Of a DNA stretch of 26,493 bases, positions 3,751 through 21,260 are shown one piece after another. Source of the stretch: a virus (lineage: Duplodnaviria > Caudoviricetes). The translations under genes and the position numbers were made by a program. Position 1 is the stretch's first letter. The number at the start of each line of letters is the position of its first letter. Where the stretch lies: positions 1-26,493 of the IMG/VR virus record IMGVR_UViG_3300028595_000056. One strand, written 5' to 3'. The notes under the pieces were generated by a model that saw only the letters and a list, made by a program, of their open reading frames with translations, made no database searches and was not told where the DNA came from.

Positions 3751-3753
3751 GTT

Positions 3754-5274: not shown

Positions 5275-6032
5275 AACAGTTCATAATCGCAATTCTACTG
5301 CTATTAGTTGGCCTGACTGCCTATGCAGCCAATAACCCGACCGATGCCGTGTCCTGGTACAAGTTTGAGTCTGGGGCGCTGACGACCGACTCCCAGGGCT
5401 CCAACACCCTATTCATGACCGGCACCGTAGACGCCAATACCGCCGATTATCAAGAAGGTGCGGCGTCGGCGTTCTTCTCTGGCGGCTCCAACTACTTCAC
5501 CCAGGCCGACCTGGACATCTTCGCAGATGGCGACAGCAACGACTTCACCGTGACCTGCTGGGTGTTGCCGCGAGATACGGCGGCTACGCGCACAATCTGG
5601 GAGCAGTACGACATCGCCGGGGACCAGAGGGGATTCAAGGTGCAGCATGATGCTAGCGGCAACATCGTGGCTTATGCTGGGTACAATGGCGGCGCGGAGT
5701 ACGATACATACAATCCGTCTGGGATCACCTTAGCCGACGATACGTGGTCGTTTTTGGCTGTTACGTTCACAGACGTCAATGACGGCTACACGTTCTATGA
5801 GTATGACGGCTCAGCGCACTGGGCCGATGGTGTCCTGGATGAACCCATCCACCACTCAACCGACGACTTTCAGATAGGCGTGGCCGGGACCATTCAACTG
5901 TTTAATGGTTGTATCGACGAGATGATTATCTGGAACAAAACGCTGACCCGCGACGAGCTAGACCAAGTGCGACAGGGCACGTACGGCGCGGCAGATGAAT
6001 CCAGCGGCGACTTGGTGATTGTACTTAAATGA
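5271..6032 (+). CDS. Exported LamG/concanavalin-A-like lectin-fold protein, 253 aa
   Basis: ATGA overlap with the upstream stop. Signal MKQFIIAILLLLVGLTAYA. VSWYKFE, DFTVTCWV, WSFLAVT and FNGCIDEMIIWNKTLTRDEL are LamG_3 motifs. Confidence 0.85.
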   Translation: MKQFIIAILLLLVGLTAYAANNPTDAVSWYKFESGALTTDSQGSNTLFMTGTVDANTADYQEGAASAFFSGGSNYFTQADLDIFADGDSNDFTVTCWVLPRDTAATRTIWEQYDIAGDQRGFKVQHDASGNIVAYAGYNGGAEYDTYNPSGITLADDTWSFLAVTFTDVNDGYTFYEYDGSAHWADGVLDEPIHHSTDDFQIGVAGTIQLFNGCIDEMIIWNKTLTRDELDQVRQGTYGAADESSGDLVIVLK

Positions 6033-6118
6033 TGAAATATGCATTTTACATTTTGGTCGAGGTCGTTTCAATCGATGCCGGGCACACCCTTGATGTAATT
6101 ATGGCGGCTGCAAAATAA
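6029..6118 (+). CDS. 29-aa translationally coupled mini-ORF (possible deletion remnant)
   Basis: ATGA overlap with the LamG stop. Reads MMKYAFYILVEVVSIDAGHTLDVIMAAAK*. Its stop lies 2 nt before the next ATG and it fills the gap exactly. Confidence 0.5.
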   Translation: MMKYAFYILVEVVSIDAGHTLDVIMAAAK

Positions 6119-6120
6119 CT

Positions 6121-7620
6121 ATGAGAACATTCAAACTTCACATTCTATTCCTGCTTGTTCTAGCGGCCACAACAGCCACGATCTATGGGTCTGTGATGTT
6201 GGTCGTTGATGAAGAGAAGCGATCCTGGGGCAATCAGTTGATGATTACCCCTGGCGAGTATGGCTTCGGCATGAATACGGTTGCTGGGTCTGGTCGGCAT
6301 CTTGATCCTCCTGCGACGACGATATTTCATGTAAACGATATAAATGATTACAATGATGCAGAGTTCGCGGCCACGCCAGAAGACTACTACGGGACTTTAC
6401 GATATGCCATAGAAGAAGTAAACTCCCCAAAGACTATTGTTTTTGACGTTAGTGGTTATATAGCCACTAAGAGTCCAATATTTATAGGCTATAACGATCC
6501 AAATTTATCAGAGCAGAAAGGGTCTTATATTACAATAGCTGGACAAACAGCCCCTTCGCCTGGCATTTGTATAAAAAATTACGGATTAACTATTGAGAGA
6601 TGGGCGCATGATATATTGATACAGCATGTTCGCATTAGGCCAGGAGATCAATCTTTCACAGACTTAAACTGTCCAGATTGCCTAAAAGAATCTATAGGAG
6701 ACTGTGTTACAGCACTGTGGTCATACTATCCAGAATCCGACCCTCCAGTTTTACCGCCCAGAAAAATCGTCATGGATCATTGTTCGTTTACTTGGGGCGG
6801 CGACATGAATTTGCAACTTGGGGCTGTTGAAATGTCGATAATAAACTGTATCACAGGCGAGGCATTGCACAGCCCGTTACATCCAAAGGGGCCACACTCA
6901 AAAGGAATGTTACTTAGTGGATATGTCAATACTCCCGTGCCCGATAGAAATATACTTGTGGCAAAAAACTTATTTATAAGCAATGTTGATAGGAATCCCC
7001 GCATCGTTGCTCGCAATGCAGTTGTTGTCAATAATGTTTTTATTGATATTTGGTCTGGTATAAACTCAGATGACACTGAATGGCCAGACATACCACAAAA
7101 TACGTCTATTGCTGCAAACTATGCCATTGAAAGCGACGCCATGGACCCTGCTTTAGGCAACGGGCAGTTTCACGCTGTGTCGTTGATGAGCCAAGGCAAT
7201 CAGCTATACATTGGCGGTGATAGTTTCTATTATGGGGAGTTACAAACAGAGCCATATTATCACCCTAATGAGTATTGGGTGAACATAGATTATCCAGAAG
7301 GGTTGTTGGATTCACCTTCCCTTTGGCCGTATTATTTTCAGAAAAAAACAGCGGCAGATGCGTATACGTATGTGCTAGAAAATGTTGGCGCATTCCCTAG
7401 GGACTCTGTTGACAGCCGGTTAGTCACGACAGCAACGAATATAACTCCTGGTGAGCCGAATGGAATTATCGCAAGCGAGGATGAGGTTGGAGGTTATCCA
7501 GCGTTTGCAGAAAATGTGTCTGTGTGGGAAGAACCTGCGAACCCGAACGATTTACACGTATCTGGATACACAAATTTGGAGGTGGCACTACATGAAGCTG
7601 CTGCTGCTATTGAGCCTTAG
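6121..7620 (+). CDS. Exported pectate-lyase-like protein (polysaccharide lyase family 1 type)
   Basis: Signal-like MRTFKLHILFLLVLAATTATIYG. PGEYGFG, GTLRYAI, IVFDVSGYI, ITIAGQTAP, HVRIRPGD, DHCSFTWGGD, HSKGMLL, RNPR, PRDSVDSR and SGYTNLE match bacterial PL1 pectate lyases. Confidence 0.85.
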   Translation: MRTFKLHILFLLVLAATTATIYGSVMLVVDEEKRSWGNQLMITPGEYGFGMNTVAGSGRHLDPPATTIFHVNDINDYNDAEFAATPEDYYGTLRYAIEEVNSPKTIVFDVSGYIATKSPIFIGYNDPNLSEQKGSYITIAGQTAPSPGICIKNYGLTIERWAHDILIQHVRIRPGDQSFTDLNCPDCLKESIGDCVTALWSYYPESDPPVLPPRKIVMDHCSFTWGGDMNLQLGAVEMSIINCITGEALHSPLHPKGPHSKGMLLSGYVNTPVPDRNILVAKNLFISNVDRNPRIVARNAVVVNNVFIDIWSGINSDDTEWPDIPQNTSIAANYAIESDAMDPALGNGQFHAVSLMSQGNQLYIGGDSFYYGELQTEPYYHPNEYWVNIDYPEGLLDSPSLWPYYFQKKTAADAYTYVLENVGAFPRDSVDSRLVTTATNITPGEPNGIIASEDEVGGYPAFAENVSVWEEPANPNDLHVSGYTNLEVALHEAAAAIEP

Positions 7621-8677
7621 TTTTTGCACATTATGTGTTGCTGATGAATATGTTCGTTATGTGGATAGAGATGTTTCCGGTGGATTGGGGAATGGCCGCG
7701 ACCTTGATAACGCTTATTCATCTTTATCTGCATTAGAAATCGCAGAAGAAACTGATTTAACCGAAGACACAAACAATCTTGTAGTTTATCTAACTGCATC
7801 AAGCGGCACGGAGGATGAAACATCTGTCTATTGGGATGAATGGACAATGAGCGCAGACTATGACGTTACGCTTATTGGAGATGGATCATATACACTTCAT
7901 AATAATGACACTGATGACACTGCGTTTAGACTACGGGATACGCACATAACATTCATTGGAATAAACTTCAAAGTGACAGCAACTGGATCATCTGATCGTT
8001 ATTGTTTCTTTTCTAGTGGATTCCCTGCTGGATCTTGGTTAATTGATAGTTGCACATTTGAAGGCGTATCAAGTAGTTCTGGTTCAGTTTATGGAATATA
8101 TCAAACAGACCCAGATGGAACAAACTTAACTGTTGTTAATAGTATATTTACTGGATTTGTTAATTCTACAGACGATGAACACGGAGGAATATGCAATACT
8201 GCTGGGACGCCATCAATCTATAATTGTACTTTTTATGGGAATAGATTTGGCACAATAGGATCATTTAGTGCAATAACAAACTGCATCGCCGGAAACAACT
8301 CTAACGCAGATTTTGGCACAACAACGAATGTAACTTATTGTTGTTCTGACGATAAAAGCGGGAGTGATGCCCAAGGTCCAATTGGTGGAGACTGGACAAA
8401 CGAGATGACATCCCCGTCAACTGGCGATTTCACTCTTGTTGTTGACGGGAATTGCGTTGGCAACGGCACAGACGACCCTGGCTCTGGCCTATACGATGAC
8501 GACATAGAAGGAACCGCCAGGTCATCAACTTGGGACATCGGTGCTTACGAATACGTAGCACCAGCAGCAGGCGGCACCACAATAACCCCCGGCGCAGTCC
8601 AGCGTAGACTGCGATCTGAATATCTACTTCTTCTATTACCTTTGACAATTCCATTTATCCGCAGGAGAAAAAAATGA
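7592..8677 (+). CDS. Exported beta-helix protein with choice-of-anchor-Q-like end and C-terminal hydrophobic/basic tail, 361 aa
   Basis: Start moved to ATG 7592 (GGAGGT SD upstream). MKLLLLLSLSFCTLCVA signal. AYSSLSALE, IYNCTFYGN and DIEGTARSSTWDIGAYEY. Ends YLLLLLPLTIPFIRRRKK. Confidence 0.75.
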   Translation: MKLLLLLSLSFCTLCVADEYVRYVDRDVSGGLGNGRDLDNAYSSLSALEIAEETDLTEDTNNLVVYLTASSGTEDETSVYWDEWTMSADYDVTLIGDGSYTLHNNDTDDTAFRLRDTHITFIGINFKVTATGSSDRYCFFSSGFPAGSWLIDSCTFEGVSSSSGSVYGIYQTDPDGTNLTVVNSIFTGFVNSTDDEHGGICNTAGTPSIYNCTFYGNRFGTIGSFSAITNCIAGNNSNADFGTTTNVTYCCSDDKSGSDAQGPIGGDWTNEMTSPSTGDFTLVVDGNCVGNGTDDPGSGLYDDDIEGTARSSTWDIGAYEYVAPAAGGTTITPGAVQRRLRSEYLLLLLPLTIPFIRRRKK

Positions 8678-9885
8678 AACGATTAACGATTTTGGCATGT
8701 GTATGTATGCTGGCTCTTGCGGGGTACGTTGGGGCCTTAGAGATCCGCTCCTATCCAGGGGCCACGAACCTGACAATCCCGGTCAGGGCGTTTGATGTTA
8801 ACGGCGACCCTAACACATCTGTTGTCGTGACAGACTGGGAGGGGTTCTACAAAAAAGAGGGTGCGGCACCCGTGTCGTTTGGTGCACTTACACCGAAAGA
8901 CGCACACGCAGACACGCACGTAGACGGCAACGCAATCGGAGATTCCAACGGGTGGGTGGATATTGATGTTCCAGATGCAGCGTTCAGTGGCACAGTAGGC
9001 ACAACCGTCGTGATTGGCGCTGTTGATGGAACGTCTGACGACACCAAAGACAAAATTATAGAAACTACGGTGTGGCTGATACAGGATGCAAATGGGCTGC
9101 TACAGGTGGTGGTTGTCGATGCATCTAGCGCTGCGCCGCTTATTACCTCGGACCAGCTCTACACGGGTTCTGAGTTAGGCGACAAGATTGTGGCTGACAT
9201 GGACGCCAACAGTACGCTTCCAGAGCAGACTGTGACGGCTCTTGTTGCTGATGCAAACTGGACTAGCCTAGTGACTGATGCGAACACTGCGGCACAGGCA
9301 TCAGGAGCTACCCCGGCAGCTATTGTAACCGAACTTGTAACAGACGCCAACTGGACATCTCTGGTAACTGATGCCAATACTGCGGCTATCGGGGTTGCAA
9401 CCGTAGATAACGGTGCCATTGCCGATGAAGTAGTGACACACATGGACGCAAACTCCACACAGCTTGCTGCCATTGTGGAGGACACCGGAACTACCATCCC
9501 TGGCACGATTACTACCATTGACAACGAAATCGCTGTTATTGATGGCATTGTTGATGATATTAACGGATTTGTAGACACCGAGGTCGCTGCAATACTTGAA
9601 GATACAAACGAAGTTCAGGCTGATGGCGTTATGATTACTGCCGCAGCGGTAAATGCTGTCTGGGCTAAAACCATGTCTGACTTGTCTGCTGGCAACCCGC
9701 AAGTAACAGAAAGCGTCCTTGCTGCATTGACAAGAATTTGGCTTGCTAACTTCGGTAAGGTTGTTACCAACGGCACGAACGATGAGATCGAATGGTACAA
9801 TGATGCCGGAACAAAGATAGCCGAATCGCCATTCTCGGACGACGATACTGACTTTACCAAGAACAATGCTGGGGCGAATGACTAA
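8674..9885 (+). CDS. Exported acidic fibre/stalk-like virion protein with internal repeats
   Basis: AGGAG SD and ATGA overlap. Signal MKRLTILACVCMLALAGYVGA. N-terminal beta domain, heptad-like IAVIDGIVDDI segment, and C-terminal VWAK...AALTRIWLANFGKV...IEWYNDAG domain. Confidence 0.65.
   Translation: MKRLTILACVCMLALAGYVGALEIRSYPGATNLTIPVRAFDVNGDPNTSVVVTDWEGFYKKEGAAPVSFGALTPKDAHADTHVDGNAIGDSNGWVDIDVPDAAFSGTVGTTVVIGAVDGTSDDTKDKIIETTVWLIQDANGLLQVVVVDASSAAPLITSDQLYTGSELGDKIVADMDANSTLPEQTVTALVADANWTSLVTDANTAAQASGATPAAIVTELVTDANWTSLVTDANTAAIGVATVDNGAIADEVVTHMDANSTQLAAIVEDTGTTIPGTITTIDNEIAVIDGIVDDINGFVDTEVAAILEDTNEVQADGVMITAAAVNAVWAKTMSDLSAGNPQVTESVLAALTRIWLANFGKVVTNGTNDEIEWYNDAGTKIAESPFSDDDTDFTKNNAGAND
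9181..9465 (+). repeat. Nested A-B-B-A coding repeats (MDANST x2; DANWTSLVTDANTAA x2)
   Basis: DKIVADMDANST...VTALVADANWTSLVTDANTAA...VTELVTDANWTSLVTDANTAA...DEVVTHMDANST. Protein identity is kept despite many synonymous DNA differences. Confidence 0.85.
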
Positions 9886-10127
9886 TGAAGAAGAAACTTT
9901 TCATAGTCGCTGTCTTGCTGCTCACGTGCGCTGTGGCGTGGGCAGCAATGGACTCAGAGAACAAACGTCGCGCAGCACAGGGCAACATGCTCCCGGTAGC
10001 AGACGCTAACATAGGTCTTTTTGATAGGGGGATGCTTGCTGGAGTCTACATAGCAGACGGCAACGTTGCCGCGCCTGTTGAAGTTAATAGCGTCATTATA
10101 AGGTGGCACCACCACTATCACGACTAG
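9885..10127 (+). CDS. Small exported phage protein with His-rich C-terminus
   Basis: TAATG coupling. Signal MKKKLFIVAVLLLTCAVAWA. Mature AMDSENKRRAA..LPVADANI..FDRGMLAGVY; ends WHHHYHD. Confidence 0.7.
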   Translation: MKKKLFIVAVLLLTCAVAWAAMDSENKRRAAQGNMLPVADANIGLFDRGMLAGVYIADGNVAAPVEVNSVIIRWHHHYHD

Positions 10128-10136
10128 GAGAAAAAA

Positions 10137-10577
10137 ATGAAGAAAGCAGTAATATGGCTAATGTGTTGCCTCTTAGTTGCTGTGGCGCTTGGGGCAACAA
10201 AAGACGACAGAAACGACGGTATGAGGCCAATTGGGAAGTTGCAGTTCACCCAACAGTCTTGGGCGTCTGGTGTAACGGACGCCGCAACGACATCTATAAA
10301 CAACTGCAACATGCTCATCGAGCGGATAGATGTTGTCGCGTCGAACTCTACCAATGCGATTACATGGTCCGTGGCTATTGCCGACGAGAACGCCGCCGAT
10401 GTCATTCCAACGATCTCAAGTATCCCAGAGAATGATACTACGACTAAGCTTGCCACGAAGGCTACGGCAGACTTTGACGCCATCCCGGTGAATAACACCC
10501 TGACGGTCACAATCACCCCCTCTGGCGATCCAGGCGCGTCTGGCGCAACTGTCGATGTCATCCTTTACGGACCCTAA
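10137..10577 (+). CDS. Exported beta-sandwich virion-type protein
   Basis: AGGAG SD. Signal MKKAVIWLMCCLLVAVALG. Alternating beta-strand pattern (IERIDVV, ITWSVAI, TLTVTIT, TVDVILY). Confidence 0.7.
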   Translation: MKKAVIWLMCCLLVAVALGATKDDRNDGMRPIGKLQFTQQSWASGVTDAATTSINNCNMLIERIDVVASNSTNAITWSVAIADENAADVIPTISSIPENDTTTKLATKATADFDAIPVNNTLTVTITPSGDPGASGATVDVILYGP

Positions 10578-10579
10578 TT

Positions 10580-11221
10580 ATGGCGACCAAGACTGAGATA
10601 TGCAAATACGCTTTAGCCAAGATAGGCGGCGGCGCACAGTCCAACCAGATCACGGATGTTGACACAGATGGTACAACTACGGCTGATCTGTGTGTGGACT
10701 TCTATGATATTGTGCGCAAGGAAGTGATCTCTCGCGGGTATTGGATTGAGGCCACCAAGTACGCCGATCTGGACAACGCCACCGTAACGGACAAAGGTGC
10801 CTGGTCGTATGCCTCAGATGCGCCCACCGACTATCTGTCCAGGCTCAAGGTCATCTATGAGCAGACCCATACCGTGATGCACCCAGAGAAGATCCAACCG
10901 ATTCGCCACCAGATGATGGGCAGCTATGTCTTTACCGACCTATACACGAACAGCGCTGGCGATAAGGTTCACGCCATGTACGTGTACGACCTATCTACAG
11001 AGGCCAGCTTTTCTGTTCAGTTGGTAGAGGCCATTGCCACAAAGCTTGGTGCCGAGCTTGCCCCGGTGATTATCACAGAGGACGGCGGCTATCACCGAAG
11101 GATGAACCTGCTCAACGAATACGAAAAGTTCCTGCCCCAATGGCTGGGCGAGAACCAAATGTCTAACTATCGGGACGATCAGGGGGCTGCTACGTGTTTA
11201 ACTATCGCACGCTGGGAATAG
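10580..11221 (+). CDS. Tail tubular protein A / adaptor (T7 gp11-like)
   Basis: MATKTEICKYALAKIG, CVDFYDIVRKEV, WSYA..PTDYL and FS..LVEAIATKLGAELA motifs. Lies directly before the nozzle gene; no signal peptide. Confidence 0.85.
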   Translation: MATKTEICKYALAKIGGGAQSNQITDVDTDGTTTADLCVDFYDIVRKEVISRGYWIEATKYADLDNATVTDKGAWSYASDAPTDYLSRLKVIYEQTHTVMHPEKIQPIRHQMMGSYVFTDLYTNSAGDKVHAMYVYDLSTEASFSVQLVEAIATKLGAELAPVIITEDGGYHRRMNLLNEYEKFLPQWLGENQMSNYRDDQGAATCLTIARWE

Positions 11222-14079
11222 TCTTAATCCTCGGGGCCGTCGCTTTCGCGGCGAACATAACCCTTACCTCGTTTAATTCGGGCGAAGTCTCTCCGTACAT
11301 GAAGTACCGCAGCGACTTTGCCAAGTATGATAGTTCCCTCCAGACTCTCCAGAACATGATTGTACTGCCCCAAGGGCCTGTAACCCGCAGGCCGGGGACG
11401 AAGTACATTGCCACCACTCACACTGACTACCACCACCTCAACTGTCGCCTGATCCCATTCAAGTATTCAAGCGATGACGCCTACGTGCTGGAGTTCGGGT
11501 CGTCTTACATGAGGGTCTTCCGTAACGGCGGCAGGGTAATGGACCCCAACGACGGCAATGAACCCTATCAGATTTCAACCCCGTTTGCGTCTGCTAGTAT
11601 CTATGACATAAAGTTCGTTCAGTCTGCCGATGTCATGTACTTTGTAGACGGCGACTATCACCCACAAAAGCTTACCAGAACTGACCATGATTCGTGGGCG
11701 TTTGAGTCACTTTATTTTGATGGCACAGGCCCATTTATTAGCGAGAACACTACTGATGTAACGCTATCTTTTACGGGCACTACTGGCGACGTGAATGTAA
11801 CGGCGTCAACAAGTGACTTATTTGAGATTAACGATACTTGGTCTGTGTGGTCTGCAAGCCACGCCTCAGGGCCGAATACATTAACCGGCGACCTTACCTC
11901 TGACGCCAACTCTGCCGAGATTATTGTACAGGGAAGCTATTATTTCTCTACACATGGGACTTGGACGGGGCAGGTTACGCTTGAGCAGTCTATTGATGGT
12001 GGCGATACGTGGGTTGCTGCGCTGCCCACAGTTTATTCCAAGGGCGACAACAACGTATCAGAATACGGTATAGAAGACGATATAGGTGTTTTGTATCGTG
12101 TTAAAATGACCAATTACGGTTCTGGTACGTGTACATATTCACTTGCGCGGTCCAGTGATAGAGCAACTGGCGCTTTCTATATCAGCGGGTGGGAGGACGC
12201 CAACACCGTAGAGGCCACCATCCTGAGCGACCTTAGCTCTACATCGGCCACAACTCTATGGTCTAGGCCATACTGGTCTTTAGGAACTAGCTTCCCAAGG
12301 GCGATTGCCCTTCACGAACAGAGGCTTTTCCTTGGCGCGTCAGACGCCTATCCAAACACGATTTGGGCGTCAGCTACAGACGACTTTGAGAATATGCGTG
12401 CTGGCACATCAGATGACACGGCGTTTACCTTCCTTCTTTCTGGCAACAACTCAATTCAATGGATGATCTCAGACGAACACCTGTTCCTTGGGACTCTCGG
12501 GGGCGCTGGCAGGCTTGCCGCTGCTGGCACTGACGAGGCCATCACCCCAACGAACATAGAATACAAGCACCAGGGCAAGCACGGCAGTTCTTCGGTTCAG
12601 GCCGTGAGTGCTGGCGATGCCATCCTTTACCTTGAGCGCGGCGGCGTAAACGTCAGGGAGTTCACATATTCCTTTGAGCGAGATAAATACGTATCTCCAG
12701 ACCTAACCGTTCTTGCCGAACACATCACATCTCCCGGCATTATCGACATGAGCTATCAGTCGAACCCACATCCCATTCTGTGGTGTGTTAGGAGTGATGG
12801 GGTCATGGTGTCTTTGACCTATAGCCGAGAGAACGACATTGTAGCTTGGGCCAAACACGTTACAGACGGCGAGTTTGAATCTGTCTGTGTGATCCCCGGC
12901 GACGACGAAGACGAAGTATGGGTCACGGTTGCCAGGACCATTGACGGCAATGATGTGAGATACGTCGAACAGTTCCAAGATATGGACTGGGGCACAGCCT
13001 CATCGACTGGTGTTGTAGCAAATGCAGACAGCAACAGCTATGCCATTAGCGATGTAAACAACAAATCAACCAACGGTGTCTATGCAATAGGAAATGATTT
13101 CATAGAGCCGAACGAACAGAAAAATCCCTTGGCCCAGATTACTGGCGTGCAGGGAACGACAGAACTGAACGGGAATGTTTATTCACTTTTGGTTGAAGTT
13201 GCTGATCGCAACCAAGTTTATCTATTGAATCCAGATACTGCCGAGTACATCGACACAACAAATTTTGGCACTTATACGGGTGGCGGGACTATCCGCGAAG
13301 TCAATGTAACCCCGGCGGGTCTGTCTCAGGCCGATTGTTTCTTTGTGGATTCAGGTCTTTCATATAACGGGGGAACTTCTTTTCCTATTGACTATGTCAG
13401 GCGAACCTCTGCTGGGTGGCTGGTTGTTCCTAATAATGATTTTAATGACGGCGATCTTGTCGTCATCTATGGCGCAAGAAACATGACTGAAATTAACGGT
13501 CAGTCTTATGCCGTTAAGCCTGCCGCTGATGCGAACCATTTATATCTAAGGAATACCGCCAATACGGAGTTTGTAGACACAAGCGGATGGAATGCGTACC
13601 TTGGTGGTGGCCGCGTTTATCATGCTGCTATTACATTCTCAAACCTTGACCACTTAGAAGGCAAGACGGTTTCTGTTCTTGCTGACGGGAACGCCCTTTC
13701 TGACGAGGTTGTTTCCGGTGGGTCAGTGACTATAGATAAATGCGCCCATGACGTTCATATAGGTTTACCATACACTTCTGTCGTTGAGACAATGCCGTTG
13801 GTATATAATACCAAGGAAGGCTCAACCATGTCTTCGACTACCCGCATTGCGGAGGTCAGAACTAACTTCTATGAAACGCTGGGTTGTGAGGCAGGAACGA
13901 CGGCGTCTACTGAATCTGTTTTCTTCTATAAACCCACAGAATACACCGACAGCGTGGCCCCTCTTTATACGGGGTGGACGACACTACCAATGCTTCAGGG
14001 GTACTGGAACGACCCATCTCTGTACTTTAAACAAGAGAAGCCGTACCCTATGACAATAAGGGCAATCGTGGCTAAATGA
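11194..14079 (+). CDS. Tail tubular protein B / nozzle (T7 gp12-like) with N-terminal signal peptide and two FCCH-like insertions
   Basis: GTG start with AGGGGG SD. SFNSGEVSP..R.D..Y..N..PQG..RRPGT, RLIPF, YVLEFG, QSADVM, EQRLFL, VAWAKHVTDG, LDHLEGKTV.VLADG and GLPYTS are nozzle motifs. Confidence 0.92.
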   Translation: MFNYRTLGIVLILGAVAFAANITLTSFNSGEVSPYMKYRSDFAKYDSSLQTLQNMIVLPQGPVTRRPGTKYIATTHTDYHHLNCRLIPFKYSSDDAYVLEFGSSYMRVFRNGGRVMDPNDGNEPYQISTPFASASIYDIKFVQSADVMYFVDGDYHPQKLTRTDHDSWAFESLYFDGTGPFISENTTDVTLSFTGTTGDVNVTASTSDLFEINDTWSVWSASHASGPNTLTGDLTSDANSAEIIVQGSYYFSTHGTWTGQVTLEQSIDGGDTWVAALPTVYSKGDNNVSEYGIEDDIGVLYRVKMTNYGSGTCTYSLARSSDRATGAFYISGWEDANTVEATILSDLSSTSATTLWSRPYWSLGTSFPRAIALHEQRLFLGASDAYPNTIWASATDDFENMRAGTSDDTAFTFLLSGNNSIQWMISDEHLFLGTLGGAGRLAAAGTDEAITPTNIEYKHQGKHGSSSVQAVSAGDAILYLERGGVNVREFTYSFERDKYVSPDLTVLAEHITSPGIIDMSYQSNPHPILWCVRSDGVMVSLTYSRENDIVAWAKHVTDGEFESVCVIPGDDEDEVWVTVARTIDGNDVRYVEQFQDMDWGTASSTGVVANADSNSYAISDVNNKSTNGVYAIGNDFIEPNEQKNPLAQITGVQGTTELNGNVYSLLVEVADRNQVYLLNPDTAEYIDTTNFGTYTGGGTIREVNVTPAGLSQADCFFVDSGLSYNGGTSFPIDYVRRTSAGWLVVPNNDFNDGDLVVIYGARNMTEINGQSYAVKPAADANHLYLRNTANTEFVDTSGWNAYLGGGRVYHAAITFSNLDHLEGKTVSVLADGNALSDEVVSGGSVTIDKCAHDVHIGLPYTSVVETMPLVYNTKEGSTMSSTTRIAEVRTNFYETLGCEAGTTASTESVFFYKPTEYTDSVAPLYTGWTTLPMLQGYWNDPSLYFKQEKPYPMTIRAIVAK

Positions 14080-14426
14080 TAAGAGAGTTCACAGTACAAG
14101 ACGGAGTAGACATTTTAGGGTCTGAGGCCAGGGAAGACGCCGAACTGAACCAGATGTCAGGGCCGGGATATACAATGCTCAAAGGCGGCAAGACTGTAGC
14201 CTGCGGTGGTATCAAGATCGCTGGGGTTGGGGAAGCCTGGTTTGCTGCTGGCGAAGAAGCCAAAGATTATAAGATACAGATAGCCCGAGAATCCCGCGCA
14301 TGGCTGGATAGGATCATGGAGCAGCACCGTCTCTGGCGGCTCTTTGCCTATCCTGGCACGCACGAATCTGCAAGGCGGTTCCTGAAGTACATGCAATTTT
14401 ACCCTTACGACATTTACATGAGGTAG
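14076..14426 (+). CDS. gp13-like GNAT-fold virion assembly protein
   Basis: VACGGI...GVGEAW...ARRFLKYMQF; located between the nozzle and the ejection proteins. Confidence 0.7.
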   Translation: MIREFTVQDGVDILGSEAREDAELNQMSGPGYTMLKGGKTVACGGIKIAGVGEAWFAAGEEAKDYKIQIARESRAWLDRIMEQHRLWRLFAYPGTHESARRFLKYMQFYPYDIYMR

Positions 14427-14428
14427 AC

Positions 14429-14926
14429 ATGGACCCTTTTACAATAGCTATGGTTATCATGGCAGCGCTCGGCGCTGGCACCTCTGCTTACGCACAGAAA
14501 AGTGCAGCCGATACCCAGAAAAAGATGCTGGACCGCCAGGCAGAGGACGCCAAAATTGCCGCCGACGCCCAGAAGACAGCCGACAAGCTAAAGGCCCAGA
14601 AGGTCCGTGAGCAGGGGGAGAAACTCAAGGCCCGCCAAAGGGTGGCCTACGCAAAGAGCGGCGTCGTGGGCAACGTAGGAACGCCCCTCCTGGTTCAGAC
14701 AGAGGCCGCTAGAGCCGTCGAAGAAGAAGCCATGCTAGTTTCCCGGGAAGGCGATTTAGCGGCCATCAGTGGCCGCACACGGGCCGACCTGCTTCGCTGG
14801 CAAGGTGGTGTGGCATCTCGCGCCGGGGCATGGAAAGCTGGCAGCACGGCTCTCTCTGGCTTCTCTGCTGCCGGTAGCCTTTTAAGAGATAGTTCGGGCA
14901 AAAAATACGACGAGGTAGTAAACTAA
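14429..14926 (+). CDS. Internal virion/ejection protein (gp14-like)
   Basis: MDPFTIAM..AALGAGTSAYAQ start, QRVAYAKSGV...GTPL motif, Ala/Gly-rich. Confidence 0.8.
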   Translation: MDPFTIAMVIMAALGAGTSAYAQKSAADTQKKMLDRQAEDAKIAADAQKTADKLKAQKVREQGEKLKARQRVAYAKSGVVGNVGTPLLVQTEAARAVEEEAMLVSREGDLAAISGRTRADLLRWQGGVASRAGAWKAGSTALSGFSAAGSLLRDSSGKKYDEVVN

Positions 14927-16371
14927 TGCCTAAGATACCAATGCCAAATGACACCGCCACGCCCTCGGGCAAGTCTGGCGTGTCCACCGTCGTCAGCCCT
15001 GATTATTACGTTAGGGACGACCTTGCGAAGTCCCAGTTCTTCGACACGGTTACTAGGGAAGCTGTGCGCTGGGGGCAGCAGGCTAACCAGATTAACGCTG
15101 CCGCGAAGGTGTCCAAGTTCCAGAACGACCTACAAGAAGGCTGGAACATGACCGTAGCTGAGATGGAGCAGGACAACGACCCTGACAAGTACCCTCAGTA
15201 TTTTGAAGCATTCAAGCAAGGCATGGAAAGCCGCCTTGAACAGATGCAGGGGCCTGCCAAACAGATAGCTGCTAACAAACTCAACAGAGACATAGGGCAA
15301 TACCAGGGGAGGATGGAGTCATTTAAGCGGGGGCGGCAGAAAGACAATTTGCTTTCTGAGTATGAAAGGGCTGTTGAGAGCCTTAAAAAAGACGAGTTCA
15401 ACCCTGGCACTGTGCTAGAAGAAATTAGCGAACGTATTCGCCAGTCCGGTATATGGTCTGATGAAGAAGCCGCCGCAAGGCTTGAGAATGACATATACGC
15501 TGTGAACCTGGAAAGAACGCTAAACGAATCTCTTTCTATGCCCCTTAAGGATGCAGTTGACTACATCAAAGACTCGCCGCTTACCGAAGATGACAAGCGA
15601 AAGGTTGAGTCCAATGTTCGCCATCAAGAGCGAATGCGACAAGAGGACTTAGAAGCCCAGAACGCAGAAACAAGGCTGGACCTGCTAAAGCGTTCTGCAT
15701 CTGGCGTGGCAACGCCGAGAGAGATTGAATTGGCTGTTGCAGCAGAGATACTAACCCCCGGCCAGGGCGTGGCGTACCAGAAACTATTGTTGCCTCCCGA
15801 TATTGCGTTCACGCCCATTACGGAACTATCTAAGGCACTCAAGATACAGAACGCCGTTGCCCTTGGCAAGCCGCTTGAAGAAGCAGAAGTGGAGTTATCA
15901 GCACTCAACCTTACAAGGGCAGACCGCGAAAAGTTCGTTGCGGAGATCCATAAAGAGCATGACATCGCCCTTGCGTCCATTATAAAGAACGCCCGCAGTC
16001 GCATGGAGGAAATCATACGGGAAAAAGACCCGTTCTCTGGCGCGTTCACAGACGACGAGCGACAACAGATAGCAGCAGCTGAAGCGGACGTTGAGCTTAC
16101 CAATCTCATCCTAGACATGGTGGCTAAAGGCAAGCAGATCAACGAGGACGACCTTATCAAGCAGGCCATTGACAAGGCGCTAATAAAGAAAATGGGCATT
16201 GTATCAGACGAAAACAACAATCGGAAGACAGCGTTTAATCCCAAAAAAGTAGGGCAACCCAAAAACATTAGCGAGTTTATGACAAACCTGAAGAAGTTCA
16301 CCGACGCGGACGACCGAGAAGGGTTTGACGAGTATTGGAATAAATGGCTGAAGACACTACTACAGCAATAG
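14926..16371 (+). CDS. Internal virion/ejection protein (gp15-like)
   Basis: MPKIP start, 481-aa charged helical protein, TAATG coupling, position in the module. Confidence 0.7.
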   Translation: MPKIPMPNDTATPSGKSGVSTVVSPDYYVRDDLAKSQFFDTVTREAVRWGQQANQINAAAKVSKFQNDLQEGWNMTVAEMEQDNDPDKYPQYFEAFKQGMESRLEQMQGPAKQIAANKLNRDIGQYQGRMESFKRGRQKDNLLSEYERAVESLKKDEFNPGTVLEEISERIRQSGIWSDEEAAARLENDIYAVNLERTLNESLSMPLKDAVDYIKDSPLTEDDKRKVESNVRHQERMRQEDLEAQNAETRLDLLKRSASGVATPREIELAVAAEILTPGQGVAYQKLLLPPDIAFTPITELSKALKIQNAVALGKPLEEAEVELSALNLTRADREKFVAEIHKEHDIALASIIKNARSRMEEIIREKDPFSGAFTDDERQQIAAAEADVELTNLILDMVAKGKQINEDDLIKQAIDKALIKKMGIVSDENNNRKTAFNPKKVGQPKNISEFMTNLKKFTDADDREGFDEYWNKWLKTLLQQ

Positions 16372-19300
16372 GAACCGCAGACGAGATATGGGGCCAGCTA
16401 AAGTCTGAGCCTAAAATTCCGACAGCGGAAGATGTCTGGTCTGCGTTTCAACAGGTCAAGAAGCAGCGGAAGGCTTTTTATGACCAATGGAACATAGACC
16501 CCGAGACTCGCAGGCAGAGGTCGGCTGAGGTGGTAGACATCTCAAAGGACTTGTTTGCGCCGGTAGACACGGTGGTAAACAACTATTCCTTTTTGACTGC
16601 CGATCCACAAGACCTGCGGGAAGAAGTCTTCAAGCAATATGAGAAAGAGCCTGGGGTATTGGACACACTCTTTGCCAAACCCCTTCCAGACGGCACCATC
16701 GAGCTTTCTCCCAACATTGAGGGAATCCCCGCAAAACCCCAAGAGGACGAGTTACTTCCCGGCCCTATGGAATTTAAGGATGAGGGTTTTGCCAAGAACT
16801 ACTGGAAGAATCTAAAACAACTGTTTGTTGCTGAAGGCCCGGCATACGTTGACGACAGCCGTATGGCGAAGTTTGACGAGATGTTCAATACGGTTGTAGG
16901 CCAACCCCTCCGCTTTGGACTGAAGCTTGCCAAGGGCATGACCTTTGGCACCCCAGACATGGCGTGGGCTGGCCTAAAACGTGCCCTGCCGGAAGATCAG
17001 TGGAATGAAGTCAAGGACATGAACCTTGACGAAGCGATGGACTGGGCGGCTGGTTACAATCCCTCGGCCTTTAATTCCATGCTGGGTGATATTGCCCAAT
17101 TCTCGGGGGCGATTGGCTCTGCCAGCAAACTAATTCCCACCCCAGAGGGTTTATCCACGATTGGGAAGGCTGCACACTCTGCCCTTCAATTTGGAGCCGC
17201 CAGGACAGCCACAGAGGGCGCAAAACTCGCATCCGAGAAGATAGACCCCACCGAGGCCGATTACGGCTACGAGGGCGCTACGGCGGTTATGAAGGACATG
17301 GCGCTAGGGGCGATATTTTCATTCGCCAAGTCGGGCGGTGAGGCTTTATGGAATCGGCACCTCATGGAGGCAGAGAGGGTTCGTGTGCTAGAACTTCTCG
17401 GCCTTGAGGGTAACGCCACAGTCCCAGAGATCAAAGAGGCTGCGCGGCGGTTTATGAAGATTAACCGGCCCAACGCTTCTGGTGATATACAGAACGCCTT
17501 TTCTGATGCCATCACTAAGCGCATTCGTATGTTAAGGGGGGAATCCACGGATATAGTGTTCCGTGGTGCCAAGGTTAAGGTCAACGCCCCAAAGCCCCTC
17601 CTTCCCCCATTTGAGCAGGAAGTGGCCGAAAGGGTAATGGTTGAGGCCGAGGAACTTACCAGAAACGCCCTGGTCAATCGCCACATTGCCCAATACCAAG
17701 GCTATCAGCGGAACCCATCCGAGGCCATGCTCAACAAGATCATGGAGACTCGGAAGCACATCGACGCGGTGGACAGGGTAACAGATCCACTTGACGGTCG
17801 GCCTTTCGTTCCCCCTGAGATTGAAGCCCTGGAACTCCAGAGGAAGTACAAGGACGTTCCTGCGGTCGCAGACACCATGAAGCTGCCGACCGTGGATGCT
17901 GGCACCGCTGGCATAGGAAAGCCTGCACAGGGCTTCCAGAAGGTCCAGACGGCTGCTACAGGCAAGAAGGCTATCCGCAACAAAGAGGGCCGCACAGCCG
18001 ACCAGATGAAGGCTGACACGCCCACCTCAGAGATTGCCCTGTCGCCCAAAGAGCAAGAGTTAAAGTTCAGGGAATGGAAAGAGCGTAAGCGTTACGATAC
18101 CCTACTCCAGAGAGTGGAACAGGGGAATATGAATGCCCTCCAACAGTTAAAGGCGTTCGTCTCTGGTACTAACTTACCCACCTATGAAGACTTGCTTGCA
18201 AGGGCCACAGAGGGCGATGAACAAGCCGTTCAGGACATTATCGAGGGCCGGTACTTCCACACCACCGTTGATGACCCAAAGATCTTAGAATACATCAAGC
18301 AGGGCAAGAGAATTAACCCACTGAAGCGGTTGCCGTGGGATACAGTAAAGGAGCCGAAGGTTGAAGCAAGGAAAGACGTTGATAGAGGTATTTCAGGAGA
18401 CGGGAAAGGAAAAGCAATTAGCGTGCCTCCAGCAGAGGGAACAATTAGAGGATACCACGGAACATGGAAAGAATTTCCTATTGAAAAGTTCAACAGAAAA
18501 CAACAGGAAAAGAACAGAATAGAGGGCGCGGTTGATACAATGGGTATTTGGTTTTCTAGCACAAAAGAGGGCGCTGGGGCGTATGGGCCAATTACTGTAG
18601 AAGCAGACCTGTCTATAAACAAGCCATACAGATTTAAAGGCAAAGGTGCGTGGAAAACAATGTCCTACGCTGCGGACCGCGCTGGTGGTGGAGAAGCGTA
18701 CAGAAACAAACTAATAAGCGAGGGGTATGATGGGATTTCAATAAAAGGTGACACAGTTGACGGCGTTGAACAAGATGTTTACATAGCCTTTGAGCCGTCG
18801 CAGATTAAAAAACCTGGACAACTAACCCGCTTTCAACGCGGCATGACCCCACTCATTCCTATGATGGCCGAAGAGTTAAAGGAACTCGGCACTAAGGGGG
18901 TCACCAATTCCATAGACTTCGCAAGGGCATCTTCTGAAATTGCCCAGAATTTACTACAAAAGGGCGTCACCCGTTTTAGAACAATGGGGCCTGGCGGGGA
19001 GCAGATCGCAGATGACATTGAATACATATCCTTTAAGGTTGAGCAGAACTCCAACGTAGACACGTTAGGGGTGGCAGACGCGTATAAGGGCATGTCCAAG
19101 GCCCAAAGGGAGATGATAGGCAAATGGGCCAACGAGAGGCTCGACAAGGCCCCTCCCAAGGCCATACAAGACGCAGAGAAGGCCCTGAACGAGATCATGG
19201 ACCGCGCTATGGAAGAGGCGGCTGAACTCGGGATGAAGCGTGTTATCTACACTCCCAAGAGAACGCCCGGCGGGATTGAACGGGTCAAGGAGGTAGTCCC

Positions 19301-21260
19301 TGTTGGTGGGTCTGGCAGGTGGTATCCGCAGATCCCCAATAAAGCCGGGGAAAAGTTCTTGAACGCAGCAGAAAAGAAGGGCAAGAGTGACCCGAAGGTA
19401 TTCCAATGGGCAGAGGCACAAGTAGTAGACGGCAAGTTCAAGACCGTGGACGATGCCGTAACTGCCCTACAGGACTTCCGCAACAACCAACTGCGCGGAG
19501 TAAACGGATACCTGGAAAAATCCAGAGTGGACCTGCCAGAAGAATACATCGAATGGGACGGACTCAAGACGCTTCCCCATCTTATCAGAAAGAACTGGTC
19601 TACGGTCGAAGGCGTGAGGAAGTGGGGATATGACGCAGAGGGCAGGTCATTCCCTGGGGCCAACAAACTCCTAGAACAGATCAGAACCGACAAGGGCAGC
19701 ACGCACGAAGCGAATGTAAGAGAGTTTATCAGGTCTAACTTTGGCCTTGGGTCTAACGCCAATCTCGCAGAGAAGAAGCTGTCTGACATTGTTAGGGGTT
19801 ATCAGTTCACTACAAAGGTATCCATGTCGCCTTTGACGATTGCCAGGAACATGCTGGATCGTATCGCCAAGGGCTATATGATTTCCCCTGTGGCTACCAT
19901 CCAGGCGATGAAGGATTACCCCCCGTTCTTGAACGCATTTATTGAATCGGCCCGCCTCTTAGAGAGGGAGATGATAGAACGTGGCGCTGTGTTTGGTCAC
20001 GGGTCTTTATCTGAGGGTTACGAACCTGGGTCTGTTGCATCAGAATTGGCGGCGGCTCCATTTACAACGTCTGAGCGCGGCAACCAAGCCTTTATAGCGC
20101 TGGTGTCTTACCGCAAGCTAATGGCAGATATTGCCAACCTGCACAAGCAAAGCCCGCGACTGTGGAAGATACTAACAGGCAACACCGAAAGGGCCATTAA
20201 AGAACGCCTGAAACCCCTTGGCGAGAAAACCCTAGCCAAGATAGAGAGCGGCGAACAGCTTACCCAGGAGGAAATTAGCTGGTTCTTGCACCAAGCCGTA
20301 AGAGACAAGGCGTTCCCGAAGATCGCGTCTACTAAAGAGGCGTGGTATGACTCCCACCCACTACGCAAGATTTTCATGCAGTTTAAAACGTGGTCAGCAA
20401 GACAGACGGCCATGCTCTACAACGATGTCTTGAAGTATACCGCCAAGACCGGCGACCCTACGCGGATTATAAACTACCTGGTTGGCATCTTTGTTGCTGG
20501 TGAACTGTATAACATCCTTAGAGACACGGTAAAAGACCGCAACGAGTCTGTGTATTCTCAGTTAAAGCTTTCTAAGGAAGAGCGAAAGATCGGCAGGGCC
20601 ATCCTTAAAGACTTGGTCGACGGCGGGTTGGTTGGTATGTTAGCAGACTTCACCTACGGCATATTCGACTGGGGCATCGGCCCGACAGGCTCCACGGCCA
20701 AAGAGGGGTTAAAAACGGCATCACGCATAATCAAAGAGTTTGACTTGAAGGGAGAGGTTGTAGGCGAACTGGCAAAGAAGGAGTTGACCCCAATCCAACA
20801 GATAGAGTCGGTAATGAAGAAGTTCGATAAAGACTCTATGTACACAGACTACAGCAAGTGGCGGTCAAGGGCGTGGGAGTTTGCCAATGACGCAAAAACG
20901 CCGGAGGAAAAGCTGTACGCATGGACAGACCGGGCCTTATTTGGTCGTAACCGTATTAACCCCGGTGAACACTCAATGGCCTATGAGATGATTAACCGCC
21001 AAATCATCGCCGGTGATATAGACGATGCTGCTGAATACGTCTCTTTGTTGGTGTCTCGCGCTGACACGCCAGAAGAGTTGATGAAGATAAGGACTGGACT
21101 TAAGAGTTCAATGACGCGTCGCGGTCCACTTGGCGGCTTAGGGAAAGAGAGGGGTAATTTCCTGGGCAAACTCACCACTGAAGAGAGAACCGAGGTGTTA
21201 GATTTAGAACGGGACTATAGAGAGGCGTACAAAGCCGCCATTAACCGAGGGTGGAAGTAG
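16344..21260 (+). CDS. Large internal virion/ejection protein (gp16-like, polyvalent) with J-like and ADP-ribosyltransferase-like domains
   Basis: 1638 aa and last of the ejection genes. LLGLEGNATVPEIKEAARRF (J-like); GYHGT...GIWFS...GYDGI...YIAFEPSQIK (ART-PolyVal-like); FMQFKTW motif in the C-terminal helical region. Confidence 0.8.
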   Translation: MAEDTTTAIGTADEIWGQLKSEPKIPTAEDVWSAFQQVKKQRKAFYDQWNIDPETRRQRSAEVVDISKDLFAPVDTVVNNYSFLTADPQDLREEVFKQYEKEPGVLDTLFAKPLPDGTIELSPNIEGIPAKPQEDELLPGPMEFKDEGFAKNYWKNLKQLFVAEGPAYVDDSRMAKFDEMFNTVVGQPLRFGLKLAKGMTFGTPDMAWAGLKRALPEDQWNEVKDMNLDEAMDWAAGYNPSAFNSMLGDIAQFSGAIGSASKLIPTPEGLSTIGKAAHSALQFGAARTATEGAKLASEKIDPTEADYGYEGATAVMKDMALGAIFSFAKSGGEALWNRHLMEAERVRVLELLGLEGNATVPEIKEAARRFMKINRPNASGDIQNAFSDAITKRIRMLRGESTDIVFRGAKVKVNAPKPLLPPFEQEVAERVMVEAEELTRNALVNRHIAQYQGYQRNPSEAMLNKIMETRKHIDAVDRVTDPLDGRPFVPPEIEALELQRKYKDVPAVADTMKLPTVDAGTAGIGKPAQGFQKVQTAATGKKAIRNKEGRTADQMKADTPTSEIALSPKEQELKFREWKERKRYDTLLQRVEQGNMNALQQLKAFVSGTNLPTYEDLLARATEGDEQAVQDIIEGRYFHTTVDDPKILEYIKQGKRINPLKRLPWDTVKEPKVEARKDVDRGISGDGKGKAISVPPAEGTIRGYHGTWKEFPIEKFNRKQQEKNRIEGAVDTMGIWFSSTKEGAGAYGPITVEADLSINKPYRFKGKGAWKTMSYAADRAGGGEAYRNKLISEGYDGISIKGDTVDGVEQDVYIAFEPSQIKKPGQLTRFQRGMTPLIPMMAEELKELGTKGVTNSIDFARASSEIAQNLLQKGVTRFRTMGPGGEQIADDIEYISFKVEQNSNVDTLGVADAYKGMSKAQREMIGKWANERLDKAPPKAIQDAEKALNEIMDRAMEEAAELGMKRVIYTPKRTPGGIERVKEVVPVGGSGRWYPQIPNKAGEKFLNAAEKKGKSDPKVFQWAEAQVVDGKFKTVDDAVTALQDFRNNQLRGVNGYLEKSRVDLPEEYIEWDGLKTLPHLIRKNWSTVEGVRKWGYDAEGRSFPGANKLLEQIRTDKGSTHEANVREFIRSNFGLGSNANLAEKKLSDIVRGYQFTTKVSMSPLTIARNMLDRIAKGYMISPVATIQAMKDYPPFLNAFIESARLLEREMIERGAVFGHGSLSEGYEPGSVASELAAAPFTTSERGNQAFIALVSYRKLMADIANLHKQSPRLWKILTGNTERAIKERLKPLGEKTLAKIESGEQLTQEEISWFLHQAVRDKAFPKIASTKEAWYDSHPLRKIFMQFKTWSARQTAMLYNDVLKYTAKTGDPTRIINYLVGIFVAGELYNILRDTVKDRNESVYSQLKLSKEERKIGRAILKDLVDGGLVGMLADFTYGIFDWGIGPTGSTAKEGLKTASRIIKEFDLKGEVVGELAKKELTPIQQIESVMKKFDKDSMYTDYSKWRSRAWEFANDAKTPEEKLYAWTDRALFGRNRINPGEHSMAYEMINRQIIAGDIDDAAEYVSLLVSRADTPEELMKIRTGLKSSMTRRGPLGGLGKERGNFLGKLTTEERTEVLDLERDYREAYKAAINRGWK

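Follow-up and report, generated by a model that had tools for sequence, protein, structure and literature searches.

A predicted Sec signal peptide on a podovirus tail nozzle and a possible two-compartment route of virion assembly

Late genes of the window

The window, the whole 26,493-nucleotide stretch of viral DNA analysed here (IMGVR_UViG_3300028595_000056), carries podovirus virion genes, and every feature described below lies on the plus strand. It begins inside the portal gene, of which a C-terminal fragment is present (2..514; phrog_332, PF12236), and continues with genes for a scaffold-like protein (821..1606; phrog_3742), its role suggested by position, a major capsid protein of the GP7 family (1701..2717; phrog_212, PF20911 with E 1.7e-50) and a cement-like protein (2730..3161; phrog_427). 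We take PF20911 to be linked to epsilon15 gp7, and the cement-like role is suggested by position and by a presumed resemblance to BPP-1 Bbp16. The scaffold-like, capsid and cement-like proteins carry no signal peptide.

The eight genes that follow were all called signal-bearing by a rule of our own, which was positive for 24 of 1445 genes in other viral loci. They encode an accessory protein of 174 aa (3174..3698), whose Atlas look-alikes are viral hypothetical proteins and whose single-sequence fold was poor (pLDDT 47); a beta-helix protein that may be tailspike-like (3754..5274; PF13229); a LamG/concanavalin-like protein (5271..6032; PF13385); a pectate-lyase-like protein (6121..7620; phrog_27797); an accessory protein of 361 aa with no family match (7592..8677); another of 403 aa (8674..9885), which contains eight DAN/DPN sites, some within a repeat, and whose Atlas look-alikes are viral and belong to unnamed clusters, with a recognition score under threshold; and two small proteins of 80 aa (9885..10127) and 146 aa (10137..10577). 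Relatives of the last gene in other signal-clade phages received a signal call in two of five cases. Together with the nozzle, nine late genes of the window are thus signal-bearing, unlike the canonical single-compartment podovirus, whose tail parts lack export signals.

The order adaptor, nozzle, internal virion proteins is present in the window. The head-tail adaptor of the T7 gp11 type (10580..11221; phrog_394) has no signal; its single sequence matched no solved structure, but a profile of 38 adaptor relatives matched the Carin-1 connector (8CK1_E, E 5e-34). Downstream of the nozzle lie a gp13-like internal virion protein (14076..14426; phrog_308), a gp14-like ejection protein (14429..14926; phrog_418, weak PF24072) and two large proteins of 481 and 1638 aa (14926..21260), putative ejection proteins by position, which contain no DAN/DPN site; none of the four received a signal call. 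After the last virion gene, a small holin-like candidate (21281..21610) has an N-terminal hydrophobic stretch and no family match, and the gene in the matching slot of relative L306 gave a weak 'hol-like chemotaxis' match (E 4.8e-4).

The nozzle leader and its distribution among relatives

The nozzle ORF (11194-14079) encodes a podovirus nozzle of the Carin-1/T7 gp12 fold. Its model (pTM 0.76) matched 8CK1_A in Foldseek with E 1.5e-60 and a TM score of 0.81 on the target, the top 17 matches were all phage tail or portal-tail structures, and the nozzle profile A1 matched 8CK1_A with E 1.3e-167. An E1_FCCH-like domain is inserted at residues 648-703. By homology to 8CK1 and T7, the protein would form a hexamer on the adaptor ring that closes the DNA channel.

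The initial annotation had placed the start at GTG 11194, behind a Shine-Dalgarno-like AGGGGG, and had read a hydrophobic leader from it, and the sequence bears this out. The AGGGGG (11181..11186) is spaced 7 nt from the GTG, an in-frame TAA lies upstream (11164-11166), and the collection's own gene call (P0001) uses the same GTG. The 19-residue leader (11194..11250) contains a single Arg, R5, a hydrophobic core from L7 to V16 and A17-F18-A19 at its end; residues 4-15 are a helix in the AlphaFold model. It thus has the positive n-region, hydrophobic core and small -3/-1 residues of a Sec/SPase I signal, and the missing Cys at the cleavage site and missing twin-Arg make it neither a lipoprotein nor a Tat signal. 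The leader is followed by ANITLT and then SFNSGEVSP, a motif that begins at 11269 (residue 26). As had also been claimed, no Met precedes this motif; the first is residue 36 (ATG 11299). The match to phrog_376 opens directly after the leader, residue 20 aligning to profile position 4 (E 5.4e-187), and the best 40 of 227 records matching the nozzle mostly begin at query residues 16-26, past the leader, with two beginning at 5 and 13. On the signal rule, the sequence itself and the conservation of this type of leader in the clade, we predict a Sec/SPase I signal peptide whose removal would leave a mature nozzle at 11251..14079.

The hydrophobic extension is kept in close relatives: read by eye, 52 of the 58 closest homologues listed have it, vs 7 of 61 farther ones. 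The other six close homologues comprise four called from internal starts and two starting at the ordinary position. Among viral contigs, a scan with the single protein found nothing, and alignment-based scans found the relatives. Of 58 dereplicated signal-bearing nozzles, 56 had a net positive n-region; a cleavage site was called in 53, and 52 of these had Ala or Gly at -1. Predicted cleavage fell 6-7 residues before the motif in 44 of 58, a count that is partly built in because the cleavage-site picker favoured sites about 7 residues before the motif. Signal-less members of the family start 7-8 residues ahead of the motif in 81 of 98 cases. A single origin of the leader is not supported, L206, L054 and P0115 being placed among signal-less nozzles. 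Two signal-bearing nozzles (L167 and L083) lie outside an intact virion module.

The leader could in principle be an accident of the coding region shared with the end of the adaptor gene, the true nozzle start lying downstream. The start is a GTG, and because the adaptor ends at 11221, 28 nt at the 5' end of the leader also form the last adaptor codons. However, the leaders of clade nozzles are mutually unrelated in sequence, and of 32 signal-bearing loci only 5 have a nozzle start that reaches more than 8 nt into the preceding gene, the other 27 overlapping by 8 nt or less, so the leader is not a by-product of gene overlap. An upstream in-frame start passing the signal rule occurred at only 1 of 171 signal-less nozzle loci, and a start at ATG 11299 would remove the conserved F27-N28-G30-P34 motif. 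Neither that ATG nor ATA 11218, the starts that were to count against the leader, need be invoked: relatives use ATG, often just past an in-frame stop. The artefact reading is largely refuted and retains a negligible probability.

One member of the clade is leaderless. L403 branches within the signal clade (SH-aLRT 99), and neither its nozzle nor its fibre has the leader; both align from the predicted mature starts of signal-bearing relatives. Its nozzle residue 4 aligns to residue 20 of a signal-bearing relative, which supports the earlier proposal that cleavage restores the canonical N-terminus. The leaderless state of L403 suggests that export is dispensable for its type of nozzle. L403 also fits a dual fate, in which a leaderless nozzle pool, arising from an alternative start or from inefficient export, builds virions in the cytoplasm and the exported pool serves a different purpose, for instance receptor masking or superinfection exclusion; the in-frame ATA at 11218 and the two signal-bearing nozzles outside an intact virion module could be read likewise. 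Yet signal-bearing nozzles have no Met or other common start codon at the canonical position, a start at 11218 keeps most of the hydrophobic core, and every fibre and accessory gene would need the same doubled fate. We regard a dual fate as very improbable.

The leader is part of a wider partition of the virion, counted by gene family across 33 signal loci. The tail fibre family carried a signal in 5 of 5 members there vs 1 of 59 elsewhere. Calls in the signal loci were absent for portal (0/8), scaffold (0/14), cement (0/9), capsid (0/13 and 0/3) and gp13-like proteins (0/22), and the adaptor received one in 24. Genes between cement and nozzle were signal-bearing in 55 of 67 cases in 19 signal loci, and those between capsid and nozzle in 5 of 292 cases in 110 other loci. 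Because head proteins lack the predicted signal that the nozzle carries, the outer tail is probably built outside the cytoplasm.

A DAN/DPN motif and the probable host

Signal-bearing proteins of these phages are rich in D[AP]N. The motif occurs 109 times in 60 signal-bearing nozzles vs 24.3 expected (4.5-fold) and 19 times in 98 signal-less ones vs 24.8 expected (0.77-fold). The nine signal proteins of the window hold 19 sites, four of them in the mature nozzle, vs a single site in the ten others; shuffles of the nine gave a mean of 2.4, and 0 of 2000 reached 19. Little or no motif was found in several signal-bearing phages (L015, L040, L168 and L194).

Several signal-clade phages sit in genome bins of one Phycisphaerae order, and the host is probably a member of the Phycisphaerae. 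Nozzle matches also occur at the level of the order, one of them at G608:C1 near 207 kb. The nearest relative of the window, L080, was binned in a Desulfobacterales genome, and window positions 1-20000 gave five short DNA matches (74-91% identity) to 401 genomes of the order, which provides no direct host link. In the candidate host G001, the motif is enriched in secreted proteins (36 vs 8.6) and near expectation in cytoplasmic ones (14 vs 12.2), and across 23 genomes of the order, DPN ranks first among the trimers of 109 secreted proteins. The match between phage and host is imperfect: the phages prefer DAN (110 vs 29), and in the order-wide host set DPN and EPN are preferred, with no DAN excess (13 vs 11.5). 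In the low-GC genomes of a mixed class-wide sample, enrichment was 1.77x in secreted vs 1.59x in 'cytoplasmic' proteins. The DAN/DPN enrichment of signal-bearing nozzles, together with the prominence of DPN in secreted proteins of the order, gives indirect support to passage through the periplasm, and the sites may be modified.

As in PglB N-glycosylation, Asp stands at -2 of Asn in exported proteins. Passages of PMC4894442 give the bacterial PglB sequon as D/E-X-N-X-S/T and exclude Pro at -1 for C. jejuni PglB; the phage sites, unlike that sequon, often have Pro at -1 and mostly lack S/T, which stands two residues past Asn in 49 of 143 phage sites. Classical PglB glycosylation is not supported. 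The sequon (X not P) stood at 1.87x in signal-bearing nozzles, 1.52x in signal-less ones and 1.04x in G001 secreted proteins. Neither the five genomes G001-G005 nor 151 from the order yielded a full-length STT3/PglB; these genomes are incomplete bins. Weak partial matches occurred in 12 of the 151, and the one checked was PMT-like (PMT_2-like). Disulfide formation as a reason for export in this clade is likewise not supported by Cys content (nozzles 0.70% vs 0.66%, all signal proteins 0.86% vs 0.59%) or parity, odd counts being as frequent as even ones in exported parts.

The motif also bears on whether the leader is a tether, uncleaved or slowly cleaved, that would concentrate nozzle and fibre proteins on the inner membrane for assembly on its cytoplasmic side with no translocation. 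Such a tether would avoid the problem of retaining DNA, agrees with the modelled helix at residues 4-15 and easily explains the joint loss of leaders in L403. The positive-inside rule is established, however, and under it a short hydrophobic core preceded by a positive n-region sends the C-terminal part outward. Small -1/-3 residues are kept just ahead of the canonical N-terminus, and a secretome-type motif tracks the leader within one protein family. We consider a tether improbable.

Assembly route and comparison with known systems

Assembly of tailed phages is regarded as a wholly cytoplasmic process. Here we lean, with a little better than even confidence, towards a route in which the outer parts of the tail undergo export and cleavage and encounter DNA-filled heads once the inner membrane has broken down; export and cleavage of the nozzle are predictions from sequence, and the timing of tail joining is our reconstruction. 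The nozzle would cross the inner membrane via its Sec-type leader, be cleaved after A19 and wait in the periplasm alongside the remaining outer parts that bear a signal. The leaderless components, namely capsid, portal, adaptor and ejection proteins, would remain cytoplasmic. Contact between the two pools would come only once the inner membrane is breached late in infection, when the tail would be completed, and until then the closed state of the portal would keep DNA in the head. A long wait fits poorly with T7, because its portal valve, as described in PMC6702177, holds DNA for only a 'brief time', bridging a brief gap, and is opened by the adaptor. The adaptor of these phages would for that reason have to bind late, with the nozzle.

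The same export evidence would serve a second route, in which heads filled with DNA bud or are extruded through an intact inner membrane and tails are added continuously in the periplasm, with no lysis-linked mixing. The ORFs scanned in four near-complete relatives included no recognisable canonical endolysin or holin, which counts against late joining, and the absence of a canonical endolysin among the 44 ORFs scanned in the G001:C18 phage and the 88 in G493-G495 fits the second route. We know of no precedent for passage of tailed-phage heads through an intact membrane. The family table showed no conserved gene for a multi-pass membrane protein or ATPase suited to transporting heads, relative L296 has a signal-bearing SLT transglycosylase (E 7.3e-9), with which two candidate lysins gave no alignment, and weak holin-like and spanin-like matches occur. 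The enlarged, convoluted periplasm of Planctomycetes, shown for other classes of the phylum (PMC5394234), would suit this second route, but we judge it unlikely. A filamentous-type extrusion phage was rejected, given portal and capsid in the window and terminases in relatives.

Returning to export followed by late joining, we offer a broader proposal tentatively, at somewhat below even confidence: that a widespread group of tailed dsDNA phages, many probably infecting Phycisphaerae, builds a two-compartment virion, sending nozzle, fibres and surface enzymes through Sec for host decoration at an undescribed DAN/DPN site that secreted host proteins also carry, and finishing the particle outside the cytoplasm, a trait that would have arisen more than once and can be lost as a block. 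In the titles and abstract openings of the open-access literature, we found no account of signal peptides on tailed-phage nozzles or fibres and nothing on the DAN/DPN motif or this host group. If true, an essential DNA-sealing part made in another compartment would mean a new assembly route and a new timing of maturation. How long the portal of a tailless head can retain packaged DNA, and whether phages draw on periplasmic host modification for their own surface, become testable questions. For annotation, signal-bearing late genes are not always morons. The motif may mark a modification system of one Phycisphaerae order and could aid host assignment of uncultured phages.

Carin-1 (PDB 8CK1, chains A and E; phrog_376 and phrog_394) is the closest solved structure for nozzle and adaptor; its conserved motif lies at about residue 15 of the chain, which was read from residue 14 onward, vs residue 26 behind the leader here. 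The nearest cultured nozzle relatives are Salmonella phage epsilon15 and the Pelagibacter podophages (Skadi, HTVC), at 29-42% identity. The T7 gp11/gp12 tail (PDB 6R21, 7BOY) shares the nozzle fold, and T7 has the same order of adaptor, nozzle, gp13-like and ejection proteins. T7 assembles within one compartment, whereas nozzle and adaptor are here predicted to enter different ones. Coat proteins of filamentous (Ff) phages use Sec signal peptides, and virion proteins would similarly be routed through host secretion machinery in the phages described here. Ff phages, however, have no head, portal or terminase, and all of their coat proteins await assembly in the membrane; in the present phages, signals are confined to the outer parts of a tailed dsDNA virion.

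The nozzle leader and its phylogenetic distribution

The nozzle ORF (11194-14079, +; 961 codons) is opened by an in-frame stop at 11164-11166, an AGGGGG at 11181-11186, and the GTG at 11194. Its first 19 residues form the leader, which ends in A-F-A and is followed by ANITLT-SFNSGEVSP; profile phrog_376 aligns from residue 20 onward, starting at profile position 4. This context bears out the initial annotation, which fused a leader to the conserved nozzle start, and the next Met, residue 36, lies beyond the motif as it had stated. In the AlphaFold model (pTM 0.76), residues 4-15 form a helix preceding the nozzle fold. The top structural match was the Carin-1 nozzle (8CK1_A, E 1.5e-60), with T7 gp12 structures among the next matches. 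The leader is a real feature of the sequence, and an artefact is extremely improbable. The domain inserted at residues 648-703 matches FCCH of ubiquitin-activating enzyme E1 (PF16190; UBA1/6/7 chains matched); it is present in many clade nozzles and seemingly followed by a second, similar segment near residues 745-815.

A protein search with the nozzle yielded 328 homologues, 120 of them listed. Judged by eye, the closest 58 listed comprised 52 with a hydrophobic leader, four called from an internal start, and two with a normal start, so close relatives do not lack the extension; the farther 61 included seven leaders. Of the 237 loci retrieved, 32 distinct ones carried a leader in addition to the window (L165, a duplicate of L003, was kept in the control group). 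Leader sequences differ among nozzles, and overlap with the upstream gene exceeds 8 nt at only 5/32 loci. The n-region was net positive in 56 of 58 dereplicated signal-bearing nozzles; 53 of the 58 received a cleavage-site call, and the residue at -1 was Ala in 27 and Gly in 25. Called cleavage leaves 6-7 residues ahead of the conserved motif in 44 of the 58, a figure partly built in because the site picker favoured positions near 7; signal-less nozzles have 7-8 in 81/98.

On a FastTree phylogeny of 161 nozzles, the trait required 5 changes, versus a shuffled mean near 50. Mapping the extension onto clades, as initially proposed, concentrated it in the window's well-supported group (45 rows: 42 signal-bearing, 3 undetermined), and the leader is a clade trait. 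Signal-bearing L206, L054, and P0115 were placed apart among signal-less nozzles, while signal-less P0060 fell inside the wider group. Beyond the main clade, the off-tree L130 also bears a signal; L054 has signals on several accessory genes, and L206 on few. The signal-bearing nozzle genes of L167 (6500-8998) and L083 (3240-7094) are not surrounded by an intact virion module.

L403 (G453:C12, 329-3768), a member nested in the clade (SH-aLRT 99), lacks the leader on both nozzle and tail fibre and serves as a natural control for export. Residue 4 of its nozzle corresponds to residue 20, and residue 2 of its fibre to residue 22, in signal-bearing sisters. This alignment from the predicted mature starts speaks for both the predicted cleavage points and a joint loss, and agrees with the earlier proposal that cleavage, itself predicted, regenerates the canonical N-terminus. 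It suggests that export is a life-cycle choice rather than a folding necessity.

Signals on outer parts and the DAN/DPN motif

The window's podovirus late operon runs portal, scaffold-like, GP7-family capsid, cement-like, eight accessory ORFs, adaptor, nozzle, and internal and ejection proteins. The gene upstream of the nozzle is the adaptor: a profile built on 38 relatives hits the connector of Carin-1, part of the structure that the nozzle also matched. Signals were called by our own rule, distinct from SignalP (positive n-region; uncharged 8-residue core with mean hydropathy of at least 2.4; small -3/-1). In the window, the nozzle, 8/8 accessory ORFs, and a small ORF at 21281 were positive; head, adaptor, and ejection genes were negative, and no T7 gp17-type fibre was recognised. 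Across the 33 signal loci (window plus relatives), 134/436 plus-strand genes were positive, compared with 24/1445 genes from viral and metagenome loci outside this set. Genes between cement and nozzle were positive in 55/67 cases (19 signal loci), and those between capsid and nozzle in 5/292 (110 other loci). The tail fibre family scored 5/5 in signal loci versus 1/59 elsewhere, four scanned fibres matching phrog_1640. Portal (0/8), scaffold (0/14), capsid (0/13 and 0/3), cement (0/9), and gp13-like proteins (0/22) were negative in signal loci; the adaptor (1/24) and gp14-like ejection protein (4/25) positives are taken as false calls. The leader is thus restricted to outer parts.

The tripeptide DAN or DPN occurred 143 times in 118 signal-bearing phage proteins (37.6 expected) versus 21 in 230 proteins from these phages that lack a signal (29.4). 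Within the nozzle family, counts were 109 against 24.3 in 60 signal-bearing members and 19 against 24.8 in 98 signal-less ones; ordinary tail fibres gave 16 against 14.8. The window has 19 in nine signal proteins (shuffle mean 2.4; 19 reached in 0/2000 shuffles) versus 1 in the other ten. Since 59 sites in 44 aligned nozzles spread over 25 positions, the motif is not one inherited site. This composition is an independent sign of export; that the leader is a tether without translocation appears unlikely. Some signal-bearing phages lack the motif. L015, L017, and L040, whose capsid family is unlike the window's, have almost none, and the L017 nozzle is split over two ORFs. Small signal-bearing ORFs off the virion operon also carry it (L389, 12999-13597; L395, 9862-10524). 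Cysteines showed no enrichment in nozzles.

Other window genes were also annotated. The largest putative ejection protein (16344-21260, +) contains an ADP-ribosyltransferase domain of polyvalent proteins (PF18760, E 6.8e-11, residues 704-823) and is probably injected into the bacterial host. A Thoeris inhibitor Tad3 (PF25185, E 1.1e-36; 22424-22861, -) adjoins a Lar-like restriction alleviation protein (PF14354; 22889-23113, -) as an anti-defence pair. A cluster at 23603-26157 (-), possibly for phage-encoded glycan modification, comprises a PAPS reductase-domain protein, a family 9 glycosyltransferase whose reading frame is apparently split in two (24256-24792 and 24696-25079, overlapping), and an ORF called sulfotransferase-like from a sequence motif, for which the family search gave no match. 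A repeated low-complexity stretch occupies the right contig end (26091-26405).

Candidate host

An apparently complete 44.7-kb clade member lies in G001, a Phycisphaerae bin whose order is compatible with Sedimentisphaerales in GC content and genome sizes. Nozzle matches occur in 22/401 genomes of that order: signal-bearing in G001, G002, G005, and G611, the nested signal-less one in G453, and ordinary nozzles in others. Bins assigned to Desulfobacterales (here L080, the relative nearest to the window), Anaerolineaceae, Neomarinimicrobiota, Omnitrophota, and Dependentiae contain further members, and all binned members are phage-sized contigs or fragments. No prophage flanked by host DNA turned up among them, and comparing window positions 1-20000 with the 401 genomes gave five short DNA matches (74-91% identity) but no established CRISPR spacer.

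In ~360 kb of G001, the motif was found 36 times in secreted proteins (8.6 expected) and 14 times in cytoplasmic ones (12.2). Among 109 secreted proteins from 23 genomes of the order, DPN ranked first among trimers (29 vs 8.1) and EPN third (23 vs 6.8). DPN was also raised in the 'cytoplasmic' set (28 vs 11.8), where two proteins, probably missed secreted ones, hold 20/44 DAN/DPN sites. DPN/EPN is a signature of secreted proteins in this order (G001 loci L247-L262 and L265-L266; L353-L388), uneven between genomes (15 in 4514 aa of G416; 0 in 2850 aa of G129). Counts were 1 against 3.3 in proteobacterial flanks and 2 against 3.6 in high-GC Phycisphaerae. The match is imperfect: phages favour DAN, for which the order-wide secreted set has no excess (13 vs 11.5). 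In a sample drawn across the class, low-GC genomes gave 1.77 times expectation in secreted proteins and 1.59 times in 'cytoplasmic' ones. Overall, Phycisphaerae are a reasonably likely candidate host.

Full-length STT3/PglB was found in none of 5 and none of 151 genomes, and Pro at -1 of the motif breaks the C. jejuni PglB rule as outlined in PMC4894442; the motif therefore suggests a periplasmic mark for which classical PglB glycosylation is not supported. Planctomycetes are described as having an enlarged periplasm (PMC5394234), and the available part of a 2025 review (PMC12673574) mentions phage once, for plasmid genes.

Proposed assembly route and comparison with known phages

A working leader would put nozzle and adaptor into separate compartments, so that they would have to come together later. 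Inner-membrane breakdown, during which the outer envelope would keep exported and cytoplasmic parts together, is the simplest way for this to happen and is considered somewhat more probable than not. Passage of DNA-filled heads through an intact membrane is less probable, though the foremost alternative, and a nozzle with dual fate is improbable. Lysis genes offer little guidance: scanning 44 ORFs of the G001 phage and 88 of G493-G495 gave no canonical endolysin or holin; a signal-bearing SLT domain occurs in one other relative, and relatives gave a few weak holin-like or spanin-like matches. The question raised initially of how DNA is retained still stands, since in T7, according to the account in PMC6702177, DNA is held by the closed portal for a short time only, and the adaptor opens the portal again. 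Either the adaptor would have to bind late, or a plug of unseen kind would hold the DNA.

No published description of signal peptides on tailed-phage nozzles or fibres was found in open-access titles and abstract starts, although supplementary tables could list such calls. Cultured-phage nozzle matches are distant (28-42% identity among 40 listed of 227). Every part belongs to a known family, but the predicted assembly route does not.
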